From IMG/VR virus record IMGVR_UViG_2698536559_000020: DNA of 47,472 nt; one strand, given 5' to 3'. The DNA is from a virus. Taxonomy: Duplodnaviria > Heunggongvirae > Uroviricota > Caudoviricetes. Position numbers and translations under genes: made by a program. The notes below the pieces were generated by a model. It worked only from the letters and a program-made list of their open reading frames with translations. It made no database searches and was not told the DNA's origin. This document shows, piece by piece, positions 6,853 through 47,472 of this stretch (position 1 is its first letter; each line of letters opens with the position of its first letter).

Positions 6853-7539
6853 TTACCAAGTGCGCGATGACCAGAATACTCTACCTATAACGTGAATTCT
6901 GGAACGCCTATCTTCGAAGGTGAGTATTTCATCTGGATACTCATCTTTATTGAAACTTCTTAGAATCAGACCACCGTCAGGTAAATTGATCAATATTTTA
7001 ACTCTAAGTAATACGCCATCACGTATAGCATAAAGATCCCCATCACGAATAGGAACTGTTTGGGAAACATCAACAGCAACAAAATCTCCATTGTTAAGTA
7101 CAGGTAGTAAACTATTACCCCAAATTTTTACGATCTTTGCATTGGAGACACATACACCAGCTTTCCTTAAATCAATCCTTCTTAGCGGGAACCAGTCTAC
7201 AGTTGATTCAACTATTTCAGCCAAACATCCATTACCCGCTGATAACTCGACATCTAGGACAGGAATGTTTGCAAAAATGTCAGGATCTAATGTTGTACTT
7301 TCAGCCTCCTTTACAACAAGGTTTGGGAAAGACGCGTTATCCTCAATGCCCAATTGCAACCACTTTTGAGAAACCCCTAACACTTTAGCAATCTCTTTAA
7401 TTTTCCGAGGCTGTTGAGTTTCTCCATTCTCGATTTTCGCTACGGATTGTTGTGAAAGCCCAATTTTTTCAGCTAGTTGCGCCTGACTCATTCCTGCTTT
7501 TTCTCTTTCGCTTTTTAGTCTTTCTGCCAATGTTTTCAC
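6853..7539 (-). CDS. CI-like prophage repressor (XRE HTH plus S24 LexA-like peptidase domain); GTG start
   Basis: N-terminal HTH (…MSQAQLAEKIGLSQQSVAKIENG…) and C-terminal S24 autocleavage domain; GTG start with GAGGGGG SD; divergent from a cro-like gene. Confidence 0.8.
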   Translation of the reverse strand: MKTLAERLKSEREKAGMSQAQLAEKIGLSQQSVAKIENGETQQPRKIKEIAKVLGVSQKWLQLGIEDNASFPNLVVKEAESTTLDPDIFANIPVLDVELSAGNGCLAEIVESTVDWFPLRRIDLRKAGVCVSNAKIVKIWGNSLLPVLNNGDFVAVDVSQTVPIRDGDLYAIRDGVLLRVKILINLPDGGLILRSFNKDEYPDEILTFEDRRSRIHVIGRVFWSSRTW

Positions 7540-8893: not shown

Positions 8894-9842
8894 TCTTGCA
8901 TGCCGTATTGGTCTGAATGAGGCAATTGTGTTGCAGCAGCTTCATTACTGGCTGAATGAAACGAATTCCGGCACTGAGCATGGCGGAATTCGCTGGGTTT
9001 ATAACACGACAGAACAGTGGCTGGAGCAGTTTCCGTTCTGGTCAGAGTCCACTCTGAAACGCACATTTGCAAGCCTGAAATCACTTGGGGTTTTGCGTCG
9101 CGAGCAACTCAATAAATCGAAGCGTGACATGACCAACTTCTACACGATCAACTATGAAAGTGAGCTTCTAGAAGAGGTCAAAGTGAACGAATCCATCAGG
9201 TCAAAATGCACTTCTCCATCGGGTCAAAGTGACCTGATGGATGGGCGCAAAATGACACGATCCATTGGTTCAAAACGACACGCTGTCATCGGGTCAAAAT
9301 GGCCCAATGATCTTACAGAGAATACAACAGAGATTACTACAGAGAATAAAACCTCTTCTCGTCCGGACGCTTCGCAACCGGACACGCAGATGGCTGAACA
9401 GGATTTTTTAACTCGCCATCCTGATGCGGTTGTATTCAGCCCTAAAAAGCGCCAGTGGGGAACGCAGGATGATTTGACCTGCGCACAGTGGCTCTGGAAA
9501 AAAATCATCGCTCTGTACGAGCAGGCCGCCGAATGTGACGGCGAAGTGGTACGTCCTAAAGAACCGAACTGGACAGCCTGGGCAAACGAAATTCGCCTGA
9601 TGTGTGTACAGGATGGGCGTACTCACAAACAAATCTGCGAGATGTACAGCCGCGTCAGCCGCGATCCGTTCTGGTGCCGTAACGTGCTCAGCCCGTCGAA
9701 GCTGCGGGAAAAATGGGATGAGCTTTCCCTGCGCTTATCGCCGTCCGTCAGCACGCACACAGAAAAACGCGAAGACCCGTACTTCAAAGCCAGTTACGAC
9801 AACGTGGACTACAGCCAGATCCCGGCAGGATTCAGGGGGTGA
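8850..9842 (+). CDS. replication initiation protein (lambda O-like N-terminal domain)
   Basis: N-terminal …LNEAIVLQQLHYWL…IRWVYNTTEQWLEQFPFWSESTLKRTFASLKSLGVL… typical of phage replication initiators; iterons inside the gene. Confidence 0.7.
   Translation: MSLLMTSQPIVINRDLACRIGLNEAIVLQQLHYWLNETNSGTEHGGIRWVYNTTEQWLEQFPFWSESTLKRTFASLKSLGVLRREQLNKSKRDMTNFYTINYESELLEEVKVNESIRSKCTSPSGQSDLMDGRKMTRSIGSKRHAVIGSKWPNDLTENTTEITTENKTSSRPDASQPDTQMAEQDFLTRHPDAVVFSPKKRQWGTQDDLTCAQWLWKKIIALYEQAAECDGEVVRPKEPNWTAWANEIRLMCVQDGRTHKQICEMYSRVSRDPFWCRNVLSPSKLREKWDELSLRLSPSVSTHTEKREDPYFKASYDNVDYSQIPAGFRG
9190..9350. repeat. candidate origin of replication: four CATCGGGTCAAAATG-like iterons plus an 11 bp inverted repeat and an AT-rich repeat-containing flank
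   Basis: iterons at about 9194, 9218, 9262, 9288; inverted repeat CCATCAGGTCA...TGACCTGATGG; downstream ACAGAGAATA x2 AT-rich tract; located inside the initiator gene as in lambda. Confidence 0.5.
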
Positions 9843-10333
9843 TCATGAGTCTTTTGAATGACGTTCAGAAATTCATTGAAGCCCATCCGGGGTGTACTTC
9901 CGCAGACATTGCGGATGCTTTTGCAGATTACTCACGGCAGCGCGTTCTGCAGTCAGCAAGCAAGTTACGTCAGAGTGGGCGTGTGGCTCACCGTTGTGAA
10001 GGAGATACACGCAGACATTTCCCGCGCCTGACTGAGAGAGCGCAGGAGCTGGAACCACAACCAGTTCGTGAAACCAGACCTGTGCGTAATTTCTGTGTCG
10101 GCACTAACGATCCCCGGGTGATTTTATGCCTGACCCGCCAGGCTGAAGAACTGGAGTCGAGGGGGTTATACCGTCGTGCTGCAACGGTGTGGATGGCGGC
10201 ATTCCGTGAAAGCCACTCCCAGCCAGAACGAAACAATTTTCTGGCGCGTCGTGAGCAGTGCTTACAGAAAAGCAGCAAGCGCGCAGCATCGGGTGAAGAG
10301 TGGTATCTGTCAGGGAATTACGTGGGGGCTTAA
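9839..10333 (+). CDS. PerC-family transcriptional activator-like protein
   Basis: …LESRGLYRRAATVWMAAF… matches the PerC family signature; alternative start at 9845. Confidence 0.55.
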   Translation: MIMSLLNDVQKFIEAHPGCTSADIADAFADYSRQRVLQSASKLRQSGRVAHRCEGDTRRHFPRLTERAQELEPQPVRETRPVRNFCVGTNDPRVILCLTRQAEELESRGLYRRAATVWMAAFRESHSQPERNNFLARREQCLQKSSKRAASGEEWYLSGNYVGA

Positions 10334-10986
10334 TGAGTAATAAATATTGTCAGGCACTGGTGGAACTGCGGAACAAACCAGCCCATGAACTGAAGGAAGT
10401 GGGCGATCAGTGGCGCACGCCGGACAACATTTTCTGGGGAATTAACACTCTGTTTGGCCCGTTTGTTCTGGATCTGTTTACTGACGGTGATAACGCCAAA
10501 TGTGCCGCGTATTACACGGCGGAAGATAACGCGCTGGCGCATGACTGGTCAGAACGTCTTGCGGAGCTTAAAGGTGCTGCCTTTGGTAATCCCCCATACA
10601 GCCGCGCCAGTCAGCATGAGGGGCAATACATCACCGGCATGCGTTACATCATGAAACATGCCAGTGCCATGCGTGATAAGGGCGGGCGCTATGTTTTCCT
10701 GATCAAAGCGGCCACCAGCGAAGTGTGGTGGCCGGAAGATGCAGATCATATTGCTTTTATTCGCGGGCGTATTGGTTTTGAACTGCCTGCCTGGTTTATA
10801 CCGAAGGACGAGAAGCAGGTGCCGACAGGCGCTTTCTTCGCTGGTGCTATTGCTGTTTTCGACAAGACCTGGAAGGGACCGGCAATCAGCTACATCGGGC
10901 GCGATGAACTTGAGGCATGTGGTGAGGCGTTTCTGGCGCAGGTTCGCCAGCAGGCGGAAAAACTGGTCAGGGAGATGGCGGCATGA
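10333..10986 (+). CDS. phage DNA N6-adenine methyltransferase (Dam-type)
   Basis: NPPY catalytic motif (…FGNPPYSR…), size and context typical of phage Dam MTases. Confidence 0.8.
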   Translation: MSNKYCQALVELRNKPAHELKEVGDQWRTPDNIFWGINTLFGPFVLDLFTDGDNAKCAAYYTAEDNALAHDWSERLAELKGAAFGNPPYSRASQHEGQYITGMRYIMKHASAMRDKGGRYVFLIKAATSEVWWPEDADHIAFIRGRIGFELPAWFIPKDEKQVPTGAFFAGAIAVFDKTWKGPAISYIGRDELEACGEAFLAQVRQQAEKLVREMAA

Positions 10987-11309
10987 CGACGTTAACTCAA
11001 TGCCAGCAGCAGGTGCTGGATATGCTGATTTCTTACCAGAAAGAACGTGGCTTCCCGCCAACCAATCAGGAGGTGGCAACCATGCTGGGATACCGTTCAG
11101 TGAATGCAGCGGTGGAACATCTTCGCGCACTGGAGAAAAAAGGCGTCATCACGATAAAGCGTGGCGTGGCTCGGGGGATAACGCTTCATACCGCGGTGAA
11201 GGACGACGACAGCGAGGCGGTCGGGATTATCCGCTCACTGCTTGCCGGTGAGGAAAACGCAAGGCTGCGTGCAACTCACTGGTTACATGAGAGAGGCCTG
11301 AAAGTATGA
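10983..11309 (+). CDS. LexA N-terminal DNA-binding-domain homolog lacking the S24 protease domain
   Basis: about 50% identity by eye to LexA residues 1-70 (LT.RQQ.V.D.I…G.PPT..E.A..LG.RS.NAA.EHL.AL..KGVI.I..G..RGI.L); protein ends at 108 aa. Confidence 0.65.
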   Translation: MTTLTQCQQQVLDMLISYQKERGFPPTNQEVATMLGYRSVNAAVEHLRALEKKGVITIKRGVARGITLHTAVKDDDSEAVGIIRSLLAGEENARLRATHWLHERGLKV

Positions 11310-27379: not shown

Positions 27380-28236
27380 ATCAACTTGCACTGTTAAGCC
27401 AGCGCCTGCTGAACACGCCGCTGGCCCTTCATCCGCGAAAAGCGGAAATCATTGTTACGGCACTGGCAGAACGACTCGGGATCACCCGGATAAAAACGGG
27501 GGCCTGGTATGACGATGATGAAGACGATTTCTGCCGTCCCGCCCGTGAAAGCGGGTACGACATTCTGGAGGGGATCGCCGTTATTCCCGTGCACGGCACC
27601 CTGGTACAGAAACTGGGGATGCTGCGGCCTTACTCCGGCATGACGGGGTATGACGGCATCCGGCGAAATTTTCTGACGGCGCTTAACGACCCTGATGTGA
27701 AGGGCATCTGTCTTGATATCGATTCCCCCGGCGGAGAAGTGGCCGGGTGTTTTGATCTGGTGGACACGATTTTTGCCTGTCGCGGGCAGAAACCGGTGCA
27801 CGCCATTCTCTCGGAGTCGGCGTACTCGGCGGCCTATGCCCTTGCCAGCGCCGCCGACCGGATCCTGGTCCCCCGCACGGGTGGCGTGGGGTCCGTTGGT
27901 GTCATCTATGTGCACTGTGACATGTCGCGCCAGATGAAGGATGAAGGGCTGAACGTGACCATCATCACCTGTGGCAGCCGGAAGGCGGAGACCAGTCCGC
28001 TGCGTCCGCTGAGTGAGGCGGCACAGGCAGCACTTCAGGCGGACATTGACGCCGCAGGTACGCTTTTTATCGAAACCGTTGCCCGCAACCGTGGCATCAG
28101 CGCGGATGCGGTGCGTGCACTTGAGGCCCGGACGTTACGGGCTGACGAAGGGGTGCAGGCAGGTCTTGCCGACGATGTGATGTCACCGGATGAGGCCTTT
28201 TCTTTTCTGTTAAAGGAGACAGCAAACAATGCGTAA
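27376..28236 (+). CDS. head maturation protease (lambda gpC / S49 family)
   Basis: …LRPYSGMTGYDGI…DIDSPGGEVAG… matches lambda C. Confidence 0.8.
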   Translation: MNQLALLSQRLLNTPLALHPRKAEIIVTALAERLGITRIKTGAWYDDDEDDFCRPARESGYDILEGIAVIPVHGTLVQKLGMLRPYSGMTGYDGIRRNFLTALNDPDVKGICLDIDSPGGEVAGCFDLVDTIFACRGQKPVHAILSESAYSAAYALASAADRILVPRTGGVGSVGVIYVHCDMSRQMKDEGLNVTIITCGSRKAETSPLRPLSEAAQAALQADIDAAGTLFIETVARNRGISADAVRALEARTLRADEGVQAGLADDVMSPDEAFSFLLKETANNA

Positions 28237-44654: not shown

Positions 44655-45443
44655 TCAGATATGTTGTGATTTGGTTTTGTGTAACCAGTTTTTTATAGCG
44701 ATATTTACCTCATTTGGGTGAGTTATGTTTAATGCATGATGAGCACCAGATATGATTTTAAGTTCAGAATACCCGAGCATTTTGTGCATACTCGTCGCTC
44801 TTTCCGGTGGTATTCCTGTATCGCTGGAACCATGAAGAATCAGAGTGGGTGTTCTGATGGTGTGAACTTTATCTGAAATGTCGTCGCGCTCCAGCATTGC
44901 ATGCATGGCAACCCTGATGTTTTCAGGTTTATGGCGCAACCATGTTTGTTTCCATTTCGCTGCTTCAGAGGCATTATTTCCGAAAAAAACGGGTAATAAT
45001 GACGATATTATCTCTTCCTTTATGACTGGGTCTTGCCATCCATTACACAGCTCCATATAACTGGACGCAATCTCTGGTGGATCCTGCTCTGCCTGGGTTG
45101 CCATAAGGATTAGTCCGAATAAACGTTCTGGATGCGACAGCGCAAATCGTAATGATATATATCCGCCCATCGACATTCCCCCTAAAACGAACTTATCCAT
45201 TTGTAGTGAATCTGCAACGCCTAGAATATCATCAACGATATCATAGAGCGAGAAAGCTTCTGTTTCTTTAGTATTTTTATCAAACCCCCTGACATTAATA
45301 CAAACAACTCTGTGTTTTTCTTTTAGCTCGTCAAGCTGATATTTAAACATTTCATTATTCATGAAAAATCCATGAACGAATATGACGGGGGGATTGTTTT
45401 TATTTGTTTCAGTGTATCCAGAATCAGTAAACGTAAAATTCAT
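44655..45443 (-). CDS. alpha/beta-fold hydrolase (esterase/lipase-like), low-GC cargo gene
   Basis: …VIFVHGF… then nucleophile elbow GGMSMGG (GxSxG), C-terminal His; GGAG SD. Confidence 0.7.
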   Translation of the reverse strand: MNFTFTDSGYTETNKNNPPVIFVHGFFMNNEMFKYQLDELKEKHRVVCINVRGFDKNTKETEAFSLYDIVDDILGVADSLQMDKFVLGGMSMGGYISLRFALSHPERLFGLILMATQAEQDPPEIASSYMELCNGWQDPVIKEEIISSLLPVFFGNNASEAAKWKQTWLRHKPENIRVAMHAMLERDDISDKVHTIRTPTLILHGSSDTGIPPERATSMHKMLGYSELKIISGAHHALNITHPNEVNIAIKNWLHKTKSQHI

Positions 45444-46112
45444 GATTACTCCATTATTTAGACGGTTATGTTGTATATTTCGCTAATGATAGCGGAGAGT
45501 TAAAGTGTGCTGCTGAACAGAAATCTACCTGTCAAAACCCTTCTGACGTTTATCTACCAAGATGGAGATAATATTGTCAAGTATTCGTTAGGATACAAAA
45601 GTATCGGTTTAATAGTAAAATCTAAGAAGTATTCGTGCGACTGTATGCCTCATTGATTTTTCCTTTCTCGCAAGACATAGCTAATTCTCGGCACGTTGAT
45701 GAGCTATTTTCATATATTGTGCAGTAAGCGTTTTTCTCGGAGGTGCTGGCAAGAACAATACATCCTAGTTTTTTCTGATTAGTGCCGCTTATGCATCGAT
45801 GATAAGGGATATTTGTTCTGTGAGCCTGGCGGGAATGGTGTCGCCAGCATCATTGGCTTCTACCCAGTAAAAAGAGGCGAGGAAACATGCACGACAGGTG
45901 CTACACGTCATGCATAGATTGGGATTACTCATAACTAGCCACAGCTATAGGTCGTTAAGAGATTCGCAGCACGCTGTATGCAATAACGTGCTGCGGCTGG
46001 CTGGTGAACTTTCGATAGTGCGAGTATTGAATGATTTCCAGCCGTTACCGATTTTACGTGTTTATTATTGAACAAACCACTCGTCAGCAGACTCCCAGGT
46101 ATCTTTCAGAGT

Positions 46113-46313
46113 CTACTGAACAAATGTTTTTGCAGAATCCTTATCTGCGGTGCGTGTAACAGAAAGCTCATCATTGCTGGTGGCTTTTACGATCACTTCT
46201 ACATCGTCATAACGCTTACTGATGCGCCGAGTTAATTCTTCCTTTAACGCATCCACAGCACTGTTTGGCATTTTAGTCATTTTCTCTTTGGCTATGCAGA
46301 TATCAATACGCAT
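46113..46313 (-). CDS. DinI-family (DinI/MsgA-like) SOS-regulated protein
   Basis: MRIDICIAK…[13 protein letters not shown]… aligns with DinI; GGAGGG SD; LexA boxes upstream. Confidence 0.75.
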
Positions 46314-46328
46314 AAAAATCCCTCCACG

Positions 46329-46372
46329 CTGTGTTTATATACAGTGTTATTTTTAACTGTGTAAATAAACAG
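46329..46372. promoter_or_regulatory. two LexA (SOS) boxes: CTGTGTTTATATACAG (46329-46344) and CTGTGTAAATAAACAG (46357-46372)
   Basis: both fit CTGT-N8-ACAG with AT-rich core; 16-60 nt upstream of dinI-like start, overlapping its putative -35/-10. Confidence 0.65.
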
Positions 46373-46374
46373 TA

Positions 46375-47472
46375 TCAAGAGGTCTTGTTTCTGCTCCTTT
46401 GGAGTTCTTCAAAACGATTATGTAAAGATTTCGGATACAGTTCGGTATATACCTGCCATAGCACGTTTAATGAACGATGCCCTGTAACCTGAGCGACTTC
46501 CTCAATACTAAAACCAGCCTCAAATAAGCGACTTGCCCCTTCCCTACGCAAATCATGGTATCGCAGATCTTTAATACCTAATTTGCTTCTTACCCTCTGA
46601 AATCCTGCGGTAACAGAAGTGCTGTTATATGGAAAAATGAATTCTGATTTTTGGGGTTGTTGCTGGACGATATCCCAGGCTTCCCCAAGCAAGGCAACTT
46701 TCATATGGTTGCCTTCCTTTTTACGTGGATCTTTCCTATCTCTTACTAGTATAGATTTTTGTTCCTGGTCGAGATCTTCCCATCGTAACCGGCATACTTC
46801 TCCAATTCGCATACAGGACCACACAGAAAATTTGAGGATATCAACGAACGGAATTTTTGAGCATTTATGAGTAGATCGTTGTTGAAGGCCTTCAATGAGC
46901 ATGTCCAGTTCATCAGATGCTGGTCTACGATTACGACGGTTTGATTTACCAATCAAACCGAGTTTAAGTAGATATGGACGAGCGCTTTTCGCCGGGTTTG
47001 ATGTGTAATTGATTCCGTATACAGGTTTTGCCGCATCCAGAACACTGCCAAGATAACTAACATCGTGGCTGACTGTTGCTGGGCCTGCACCAGCGTTGTT
47101 TCTTAGTCTGCAATGTTCAATTACGTCATTTTCTGTCAGTTCAGATAGTTTGATCGCGGAGATGTCGCTATCCATAAGTAGTTCCAGCACATATCTTTTA
47201 GTACGGCCTGCTTTACCTCCGGCATTTGGGTCATTTAAATATTTGTGTAGTAAGTCACGGACTGTAAGTCCGTCAACAGCATTTGATGATGGAATGCCAT
47301 ATAGATCTAATTCCATCACTTTCTGTGCGCCCCATGTTTTGGCATGAGCATGTTTAGGGAATGTTTTGCTTTCCCTGTAAGTGATAACACCTTTTTCTTT
47401 GATAATCACATTACAGCGATAGCGTGGTGTGCCATCGGATTTTAGTCGTTTCTCTATGTTATAGTACGCCAT
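46375..47472 (-). CDS. int: tyrosine integrase (phage integrase family)
   Basis: C-terminal catalytic residues (…HDLRREGASRL… HxxR; …GHRSLNVLWQVY… Tyr); start codon is the last three bases of the window. Confidence 0.85.
   Translation of the reverse strand: MAYYNIEKRLKSDGTPRYRCNVIIKEKGVITYRESKTFPKHAHAKTWGAQKVMELDLYGIPSSNAVDGLTVRDLLHKYLNDPNAGGKAGRTKRYVLELLMDSDISAIKLSELTENDVIEHCRLRNNAGAGPATVSHDVSYLGSVLDAAKPVYGINYTSNPAKSARPYLLKLGLIGKSNRRNRRPASDELDMLIEGLQQRSTHKCSKIPFVDILKFSVWSCMRIGEVCRLRWEDLDQEQKSILVRDRKDPRKKEGNHMKVALLGEAWDIVQQQPQKSEFIFPYNSTSVTAGFQRVRSKLGIKDLRYHDLRREGASRLFEAGFSIEEVAQVTGHRSLNVLWQVYTELYPKSLHNRFEELQRSRNKTS

Follow-up and report, generated by a model that had tools for sequence, protein, structure and literature searches.

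The window analysed in the present study is the whole of a 47,472-nt viral sequence (IMG/VR record IMGVR_UViG_2698536559_000020), towards the end of which a short gene of the DinI family follows the gene for a tyrosine integrase (int) on the same strand. The integrase gene (46375-47472, minus strand; 365 amino acids in the open reading frame list) matches the Pfam family Phage_integrase (E 8.8e-21), and the dinI-like open reading frame (ORF) behind it (46113-46313, minus strand) encodes 66 amino acids. The 61-nt gap between the two holds two LexA boxes, a proximal one at 46329-46344 (CTGTGTTTATATACAG on the plus strand, CTGTATATAAACACAG on the minus-strand reading) and a distal one at 46357-46372 (CTGTGTAAATAAACAG and CTGTTTATTTACACAG, respectively). 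Both have the form CTGT-N8-ACAG, their centres are 28 bp apart across a 12-nt AT-rich gap (TTAAAAATAACA), and the bases closest to the dinI-like start codon are at positions -16 and -44 relative to its A (46313). A preliminary description of this DNA, made from the sequence without database searches, had reported both boxes, and their sequence and coordinates are confirmed here. A Shine-Dalgarno motif, GGAGGG, can be read 6 nt 5' of the dinI-like start codon (46325-46320, minus strand).

Matrix scoring of the LexA sites, which the preliminary description had proposed as a check, was performed on all 20-mers of the window using a matrix in the style of the Berg-von Hippel heterology index (HI-like; lower scores are better) built from 25 E. 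coli SOS boxes. The distal box (20-mer 46355-46374) was the best site in the window, with a score of 4.3, and the proximal box (46327-46346) ranked second with 7.1; both fall within the range of 2.4 to 12.3 spanned by the authentic boxes used for training, and the third-ranked site anywhere in the 47.5 kb scored 13.0. Agreement of the two boxes with the consensus TACTG(TA)5CAGTA was 16/20 and 15/20. First-order Markov simulations of 47.5 kb (n = 300) yielded no site scoring ≤7.1 and a mean of 0.03 sites scoring ≤10. For the simpler pattern CTGTN8ACAG, three copies were counted in the window where 0.56 would be expected; the third, at 28207, has a GC-rich centre. By these scores the two boxes are the sole credible LexA sites in 47 kb, and a pair of such sites 28 bp apart within a 61-nt gap is no coincidence. 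We infer that LexA binds both of them.

The two boxes are arranged around a predicted sigma-70 promoter. Its putative -35 hexamer, TTGATA (46378-46373, minus strand; TTGACA in most relatives), contains the TGA stop codon of the integrase gene (46377-46375), an overlap that the preliminary description had correctly recognised. The -10 element is a consensus prediction at 46349-46355 (minus strand), between the boxes, and can be read as TAAAAA with a 17-nt spacer or as AAAAAT with an 18-nt spacer; a promoter scan returned TTGATA-18-AAAAAT with 9/12 consensus matches, and the GenBank record of phage mEp460 annotates a promoter at the homologous place as TTGACA-17-TAAAAA. In this layout the distal box occupies the -35/-10 spacer and the proximal box spans the predicted transcription start (approximately 46341-46344) and the early 5' untranslated region, so that the boxes flank the predicted -10. 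An alternative pairing of TTTACA in the distal box with TATATA or TATAAA in the proximal box was rejected, since by eye it leaves spacings of 18-20 nt or a -35 matching 0/6 positions; the outer -35 is preferred because it coincides with the boundary of a conserved cassette and is a perfect TTGACA in relatives.

The dinI-like gene is a truncated member of its family. Its product matches the Pfam family DinI (PF06183; E 5.8e-11, 43 bits against a cut-off of 24.2) and phrog_189, 'RecA filament binding protein DinI' (E 2.9e-20), in agreement with the family assignment made previously, and the PF06183 match is limited to profile positions 1-44 of 63, leaving the domain incomplete. DNA alignment with mEp460 and Lys8385Vzw attributes this to a single GAG to TAG change at codon 67 (46115-46113), where relatives have Glu67; the relatives encode 82 amino acids (mEp460 protein), of which the C-terminal 16 are removed in the window copy. 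This premature stop was not mentioned in the preliminary description. The orphaned 3' part of the ancestral frame, TLKDTWESADEWFVQ plus TAA (46065-46112, minus strand; aligned to the same two phages), codes for the half of the C-terminal helix that touches RecA, and a read-through translation and E. coli DinI (1GHH/7YWA; E 1.3e-11) align over their full lengths at 44% identity.

Cryo-electron microscopy of the RecA-DinI complex shows RecA F203 entering a DinI pocket formed by L13, L21, W71, W77 and F78, with E24, E69 and D76 forming an acidic patch, and substitution of any of these eight residues impairs stabilisation of the RecA filament (PMC9926225). The window product retains M15, L23 and E26, the equivalents of L13, L21 and E24. 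The equivalents of E69, W71, D76, W77 and F78 (D71, W73, E78, W79 and F80) all fall after the TAG and are untranslated. Because five of the eight experimentally important residues are deleted, the 66-residue product is most likely unable to bind RecA and has most likely lost its canonical function.

Both boxes, with their 28-bp spacing, are kept in all 52 of the close IMG/VR relatives that have upstream DNA. The relatives provide 16 distinct in-register variants, in which the CTGT and ACAG arms are invariant while four central bases vary in the distal box and one in the proximal box. DNA identity to mEp460 is approximately 93% over dinI, the promoter and the int 3' end, and similarly close relatives include Lys8385Vzw, SKA5, 2H10, cdtI and many Stx-converting phages, with 149 phage records matching. 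Some match to the cassette was found in 5243 of 5426 complete E. coli genomes (median two per genome), a count that includes low-identity matches.

The stretch homologous to the Stx2c, 2H10 and PhiR63 phages begins at about 45961 and breaks off exactly at 46378, the first base of the predicted -35. Three unrelated upstream contexts occur among the relatives, each joined at TTGA(C/T)A. Because homology ends at the -35 and unrelated sequences are joined there, the dinI unit is best described from these alignments as a mobile cassette of about 415 bp that starts at its own -35 and ends about 100 nt past dinI; its conserved 3' flank (45961-46064, minus strand), delimited by the same homology limits, has a hairpin at its right edge. 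The preliminary description had presented the gene as jammed against the integrase. On the alignments this crowding is no special design but a recombination joint at which the TGA of the -35 doubles as the int stop codon, and the cassette stands behind unrelated sequences elsewhere.

In E. coli 2015C-4136CT1 an identical int starts 89 nt from the start of dusA. The window itself stops exactly at the int start codon (47472), and the dusA start lies 89 nt past it in the host chromosome (L003 7573-7662). Because dusA begins 89 nt past the int start, we regard the element as a prophage that targets dusA and whose int is transcribed from the junction towards the prophage interior.

To place the layout within its family, 80 dinI homologues from species-representative Enterobacterales genomes were surveyed over 150 nt upstream with a cut-off of HI ≤12.5. 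A LexA-type box was found upstream of 75 of the 80, and exactly one box in 69, its 16-mer typically starting at -37. The two-box layout (-59/-31) was seen at three of the 80 loci only, all of them E. coli or Shigella copies of the same cassette. Lengths were equally uniform, 79 of the 80 homologues having 74-83 amino acids and the sole shorter one being an obvious 43-residue pseudogene. The survey indicates that LexA control is a trait of the dinI family and that the tandem 28-bp layout is an elaboration confined to an Escherichia/Shigella prophage clade.

The nearest known counterpart is the DinI-like gene 021 of mEp460, which occupies the same position after the integrase gene and, like the same cassette in Lys8385Vzw, SKA5, 2H10, cdtI and Stx1a, Stx2a and Stx2c phages, shares both boxes and the 28-bp spacing. 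These mEp460-type copies encode 82 amino acids and mostly have a TTGACA -35, whereas the window has TAG at codon 67 and TTGATA. Their GenBank records annotate the promoter but not the LexA boxes, and the two operators could be annotated on this widespread cassette. Chromosomal dinI of E. coli (b1061; 1GHH; 7YWA with the RecA filament) belongs to the same family and is likewise LexA-regulated from a compact intergenic site, 73 nt after pyrC; in K-12 it has one box (ACCTGTATAAATAACCAGTA) over the -10 and a full-length product of 81 amino acids, in contrast to the two boxes flanking the -10 in the window. More than one LexA box per promoter is also found in lexA, recN, the colicin genes and Salmonella dinI. 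Box numbers for recN, lexA and dinI are given in PMC8072944, where the boxes of Salmonella chromosomal dinI lie at 19 and 42 nt. Several boxes on one promoter should repress it more tightly and delay its induction. Unlike the other multi-operator SOS promoters, the Escherichia/Shigella prophage cassette places its boxes 28 bp apart, centre to centre, on either side of the -10, and this layout is found in no other loci of the survey.

Among prophages, the Gifsy-1, -2 and -3 dinI homologues are LexA-controlled and induced by DNA damage (PMC3121763, PMC8072944), and SOS induction of the Salmonella dinI-gfoA/gftA-irsA operons is independent of the phage repressor (Lemire et al. 2011, PMC3121763). 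These operons differ from the window in several respects. In place of the two boxes of the window they have a single one, at a distance of 19 nt from the start codon (PMC8072944). A small antirepressor gene directly follows Gifsy dinI; in the window, the interval between the ancestral dinI stop (46065) and the remnant of a ykgJ-family gene (45932) is 133 nt long and holds no ORF. Finally, the Gifsy repressors are not cleaved, whereas the CI-type repressor of the window (6853-7539, minus strand) combines HTH_3 and Peptidase_S24 domains with an Ala-Gly site (ELSAGNG), a candidate serine in GNSL and a candidate lysine in RVK. A Gifsy-like antirepressor after dinI was rejected on account of the short ORF-less interval and the S24-type CI. 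A proposal that the ykgJ-like gene corresponds to Gifsy irsA was likewise unsupported, tblastn on the phage collection returning Stx-phage fragments only and no Gifsy matches. Deletion of Gifsy dinI has no significant effect on induction. Because CI has an S24 domain, an Ala-Gly site and candidate Ser and Lys residues, induction of the window prophage should follow the lambda route. Tum of the temperate coliphage 186 (discussed in PMC3121763) is another LexA-controlled protein with DinI-related sequence, which there makes up the C-terminal half; the N-terminal half of Tum is an antirepressor, and the window ORF, which starts at DinI residue 1 with no extension, shows no sign of such a fusion. 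SOS-controlled prophage dinI homologues are thus already documented, and the present locus is a common, already-annotated E. coli prophage module.

Taken together, we consider it probable that the locus is a LexA-repressed, stand-alone cassette (a 'moron') of a dusA-integrating E. coli prophage whose switch looks intact and whose effector is probably dead. The promoter (TTGATA, 17 or 18 nt, TAAAAAT) would be governed by two LexA operators, one in its spacer and one over the start. In a lysogen, host LexA would occupy both operators and keep the promoter shut independently of CI; after DNA damage, RecA-stimulated self-cleavage of LexA would derepress it, and the resulting mRNA would have a short leader and a strong Shine-Dalgarno sequence. 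In the relatives, by analogy with E. coli DinI, the 82-residue homologue would sit in the RecA filament groove, a site shared with LexA, UmuD and lambda CI, and would there tune RecA co-protease activity and hence CI cleavage. In the window copy the operators and promoter appear intact, the 66-residue effector is probably dead and its ykgJ-like neighbour is a pseudogene. Models of the induction of this prophage should not treat this dinI copy as an active RecA modulator, and the natural 82-residue and TAG alleles offer a clean comparison for the effect of a prophage DinI on CI cleavage and induction frequency.

Several observations weigh against this reading. The HI-like matrix was not built from the published table of Lewis et al. 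1994; of the 25 boxes behind it, one, that of K-12 dinI, was verified against the genome. The consensus match of the promoter is not significant by itself (three matches against 3.5 expected in a 1.3-kb region), and because of this the promoter call rests on conservation and the cassette boundary. The frame past the TAG is intact to the ancestral TAA (46067-46065), so that an amber-suppressor host would yield the full-length protein. Lastly, the exact 66-residue protein (WP_001217107.1) occurs on 747 contigs and is indexed in 767 collection blocks, and the allele has come through at least one swap of downstream cargo, in the sister prophage L087. It is labelled MULTISPECIES within Escherichia, and three complete E. 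coli genomes (3/5426) are 100% identical over the region and carry the TAG allele. Because so many contigs share the exact protein and three complete genomes are identical, the TAG at codon 67 is, on this comparison, no sequencing error. The presence of the allele on so many contigs and through a cargo swap would fit a neutral change in a clonal lineage of prophages, but also a retained or altered function.

The boxes could instead, or in addition, be bound by a second LexA-like protein encoded by the phage. A 108-residue ORF (10983-11309, plus strand), flanked in the nin-like region by a Dam methylase gene and RusA, covers the full LexA_DNA_bind profile (PF01726; E 2.9e-19) and has no S24 cleavage/dimerisation domain. 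With LexA residues 1-86 it shares 43% identity (PDB 1LEA, E 6.9e-16; phrog_362), and its recognition helix reads SVNAAVEHL against SPNAAEEHL in LexA. This ORF and the S24-type CI bear out two components named in the preliminary description, which had called the first an uncleavable LexA mimic. Such an uncleavable protein might shut down the dinI promoter and the SOS genes of the host a second time in the lytic phase, once host LexA is destroyed. Its near-LexA helix and the status of the dinI boxes as the only LexA-type sites in the phage speak for this, as does the fact that 31 of the 50 phage records with the LexA-like gene also have the dinI cassette. These counts come from a phage collection (112 records, 143 matching places) in which the cassette occurs in 93 records. 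Obligatory coupling of the two was rejected, since the ORF occurs without the cassette in 19 records (SfV, SfII, SfIV, Ayreon, Kati and others) and the cassette without the ORF in about 62 (Stx1a and Stx2a phages); the association may reflect shared ancestry. The protein also lacks the LexA dimerisation domain, and has Val at the position of LexA E44, which we take to be a base-contacting residue of the recognition helix. A literature search on the function of phage-borne DinI or LexA-domain-only proteins found nothing specific. On balance we regard binding by the phage protein as unlikely; if it does occur, the phage would encode an SOS shut-off circuit with the dinI promoter as its sole phage-borne target. 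Just 5' of the LexA-like ORF, in the early-right operon, lie a homologue of PerC-family activators (9839-10333, plus strand) and a Dam-type N6-adenine methyltransferase gene (10300-10986, plus strand).

Another alternative to an intact switch with a dead effector is that the 66-residue DinI is a functional, selected variant, which might modulate RecA differently or more weakly or might act on a new partner, so that the cassette would still contribute to SOS or induction control. The number of contigs carrying the exact allele and its MULTISPECIES label favour this, together with the intact promoter, operators and Shine-Dalgarno sequence and the retention of the N-terminal contacts. However, the residues lost are five of the eight at which substitutions impair DinI, the family survey revealed no comparably short homologue other than the pseudogene, and the allele is a minority one, being found in 2 of 73 IMG/VR relatives in addition to the three complete genomes noted above. 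All 25 contigs that were read show the same dusA-int-dinI context, one of them (L087) with AraC/IS downstream cargo, which fits hitch-hiking in one prophage lineage, and the adjoining ykgJ-like gene is likewise decayed. Selection for the short form accordingly seems quite unlikely to us. Of the several layers of SOS and induction control that the preliminary description had proposed, a cleavable CI, the LexA-domain ORF and the LexA operators stand as parts, while the DinI layer is most likely non-functional owing to the change of E67 to TAG.

The SOS payload might alternatively be cargo downstream of the cassette, namely an alpha/beta hydrolase of 262 amino acids (44655-45443, minus strand; Abhydrolase_1, E 1.5e-24) encoded between a tail-fibre assembly gene and the dinI cassette and transcribed through the dead dinI and ykgJ genes. 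The genes share an orientation, and the minus strand from 46113 to 45443 yielded no intrinsic terminator of canonical form. More generally, a terminator scan found no intrinsic terminator on that strand between int and dinI or past dinI. Against such read-through, cassette homology stops at about 45961, leaving the hydrolase gene outside it, and an AraC-family regulator and insertion sequence (IS) fragments take the place of the hydrolase gene in L087. A promoter-like TTGACA-N17/18-TAGATA, seen by eye, also stands 5' of the hydrolase gene, and a conserved hairpin lies just past dinI. We judge it very unlikely that the hydrolase is the true payload. The hairpin (GCAGCACG-N13-CGTGCTGC; 45966-45994, minus strand), identified by RNA folding, has no U tail and lies between dinI and the ykgJ remnant; in alignment its stem is kept in E. 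coli A24 through two compensatory pair changes, and it possibly serves as an mRNA 3' stabiliser, a weak terminator or a recombination joint.

A further alternative is that the palindromes act as RNA when int is read through, the boxes pairing into a hairpin that terminates int or insulates dinI translation. The int-sense RNA from 46400 to 46300 folds at -22.2 kcal/mol (z = -3.2) and the mEp460 version (L001 2836-2936, minus strand) at -21.7 kcal/mol (z = -3.7); common to both is the base helix CCUCU:(G/A)GAGG, which masks the dinI Shine-Dalgarno sequence and is followed by a U run. Two similar tandem palindromes necessarily pair, however, and the presence of two operators accounts for the stability of the fold. 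Inside the hairpin, the window and mEp460 pair in different registers, which gives no covariation support, the cassette is also found behind non-int sequences without a CCUCU partner, and the terminator scan of the minus strand was empty. An RNA function has in our view only a very slight chance of being correct, and the operator-operator hairpin is probably a by-product of the tandem palindromes. That the boxes are chance palindromes of an AT-rich region without a regulatory role is effectively refuted on statistics and conservation, since not a single site of this quality arose in the 300 simulations, all relatives keep the boxes and a LexA box is the norm across the family.

The decayed ykgJ-family gene, which normally encodes a Cys-cluster protein, spans 45637-45932 on the minus strand and shows a 1-nt deletion frameshift, in-frame stops and loss of cysteines. 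Its remnant is a 47-residue ORF (45789-45932), and the tblastn match is divided over two frames, while E. coli A24 has an intact ykgJ-like gene of 109 amino acids (L084 2204-2533). An Rfam scan of 45300-46500 gave only a sub-threshold match to CssrB, a Shigella chromosomal small RNA, which was treated as noise or a distant relic; it lies at 45890-45995 on the plus strand, antisense to the start of the ykgJ remnant, and scores 26.8 bits against a gathering score of 76 (E 0.004). RefSeq/PGAP annotates a 46-residue 'capsid protein' at 45931-46071 on the plus strand (L003 6032-6172), antisense to the dinI 3' end and flank. This call is probably spurious, having no Pfam or PHROG support and lying inside the conserved cassette. 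Short ykgJ-like fragments also occur at the ends of many Stx1a and Stx2a prophage records.

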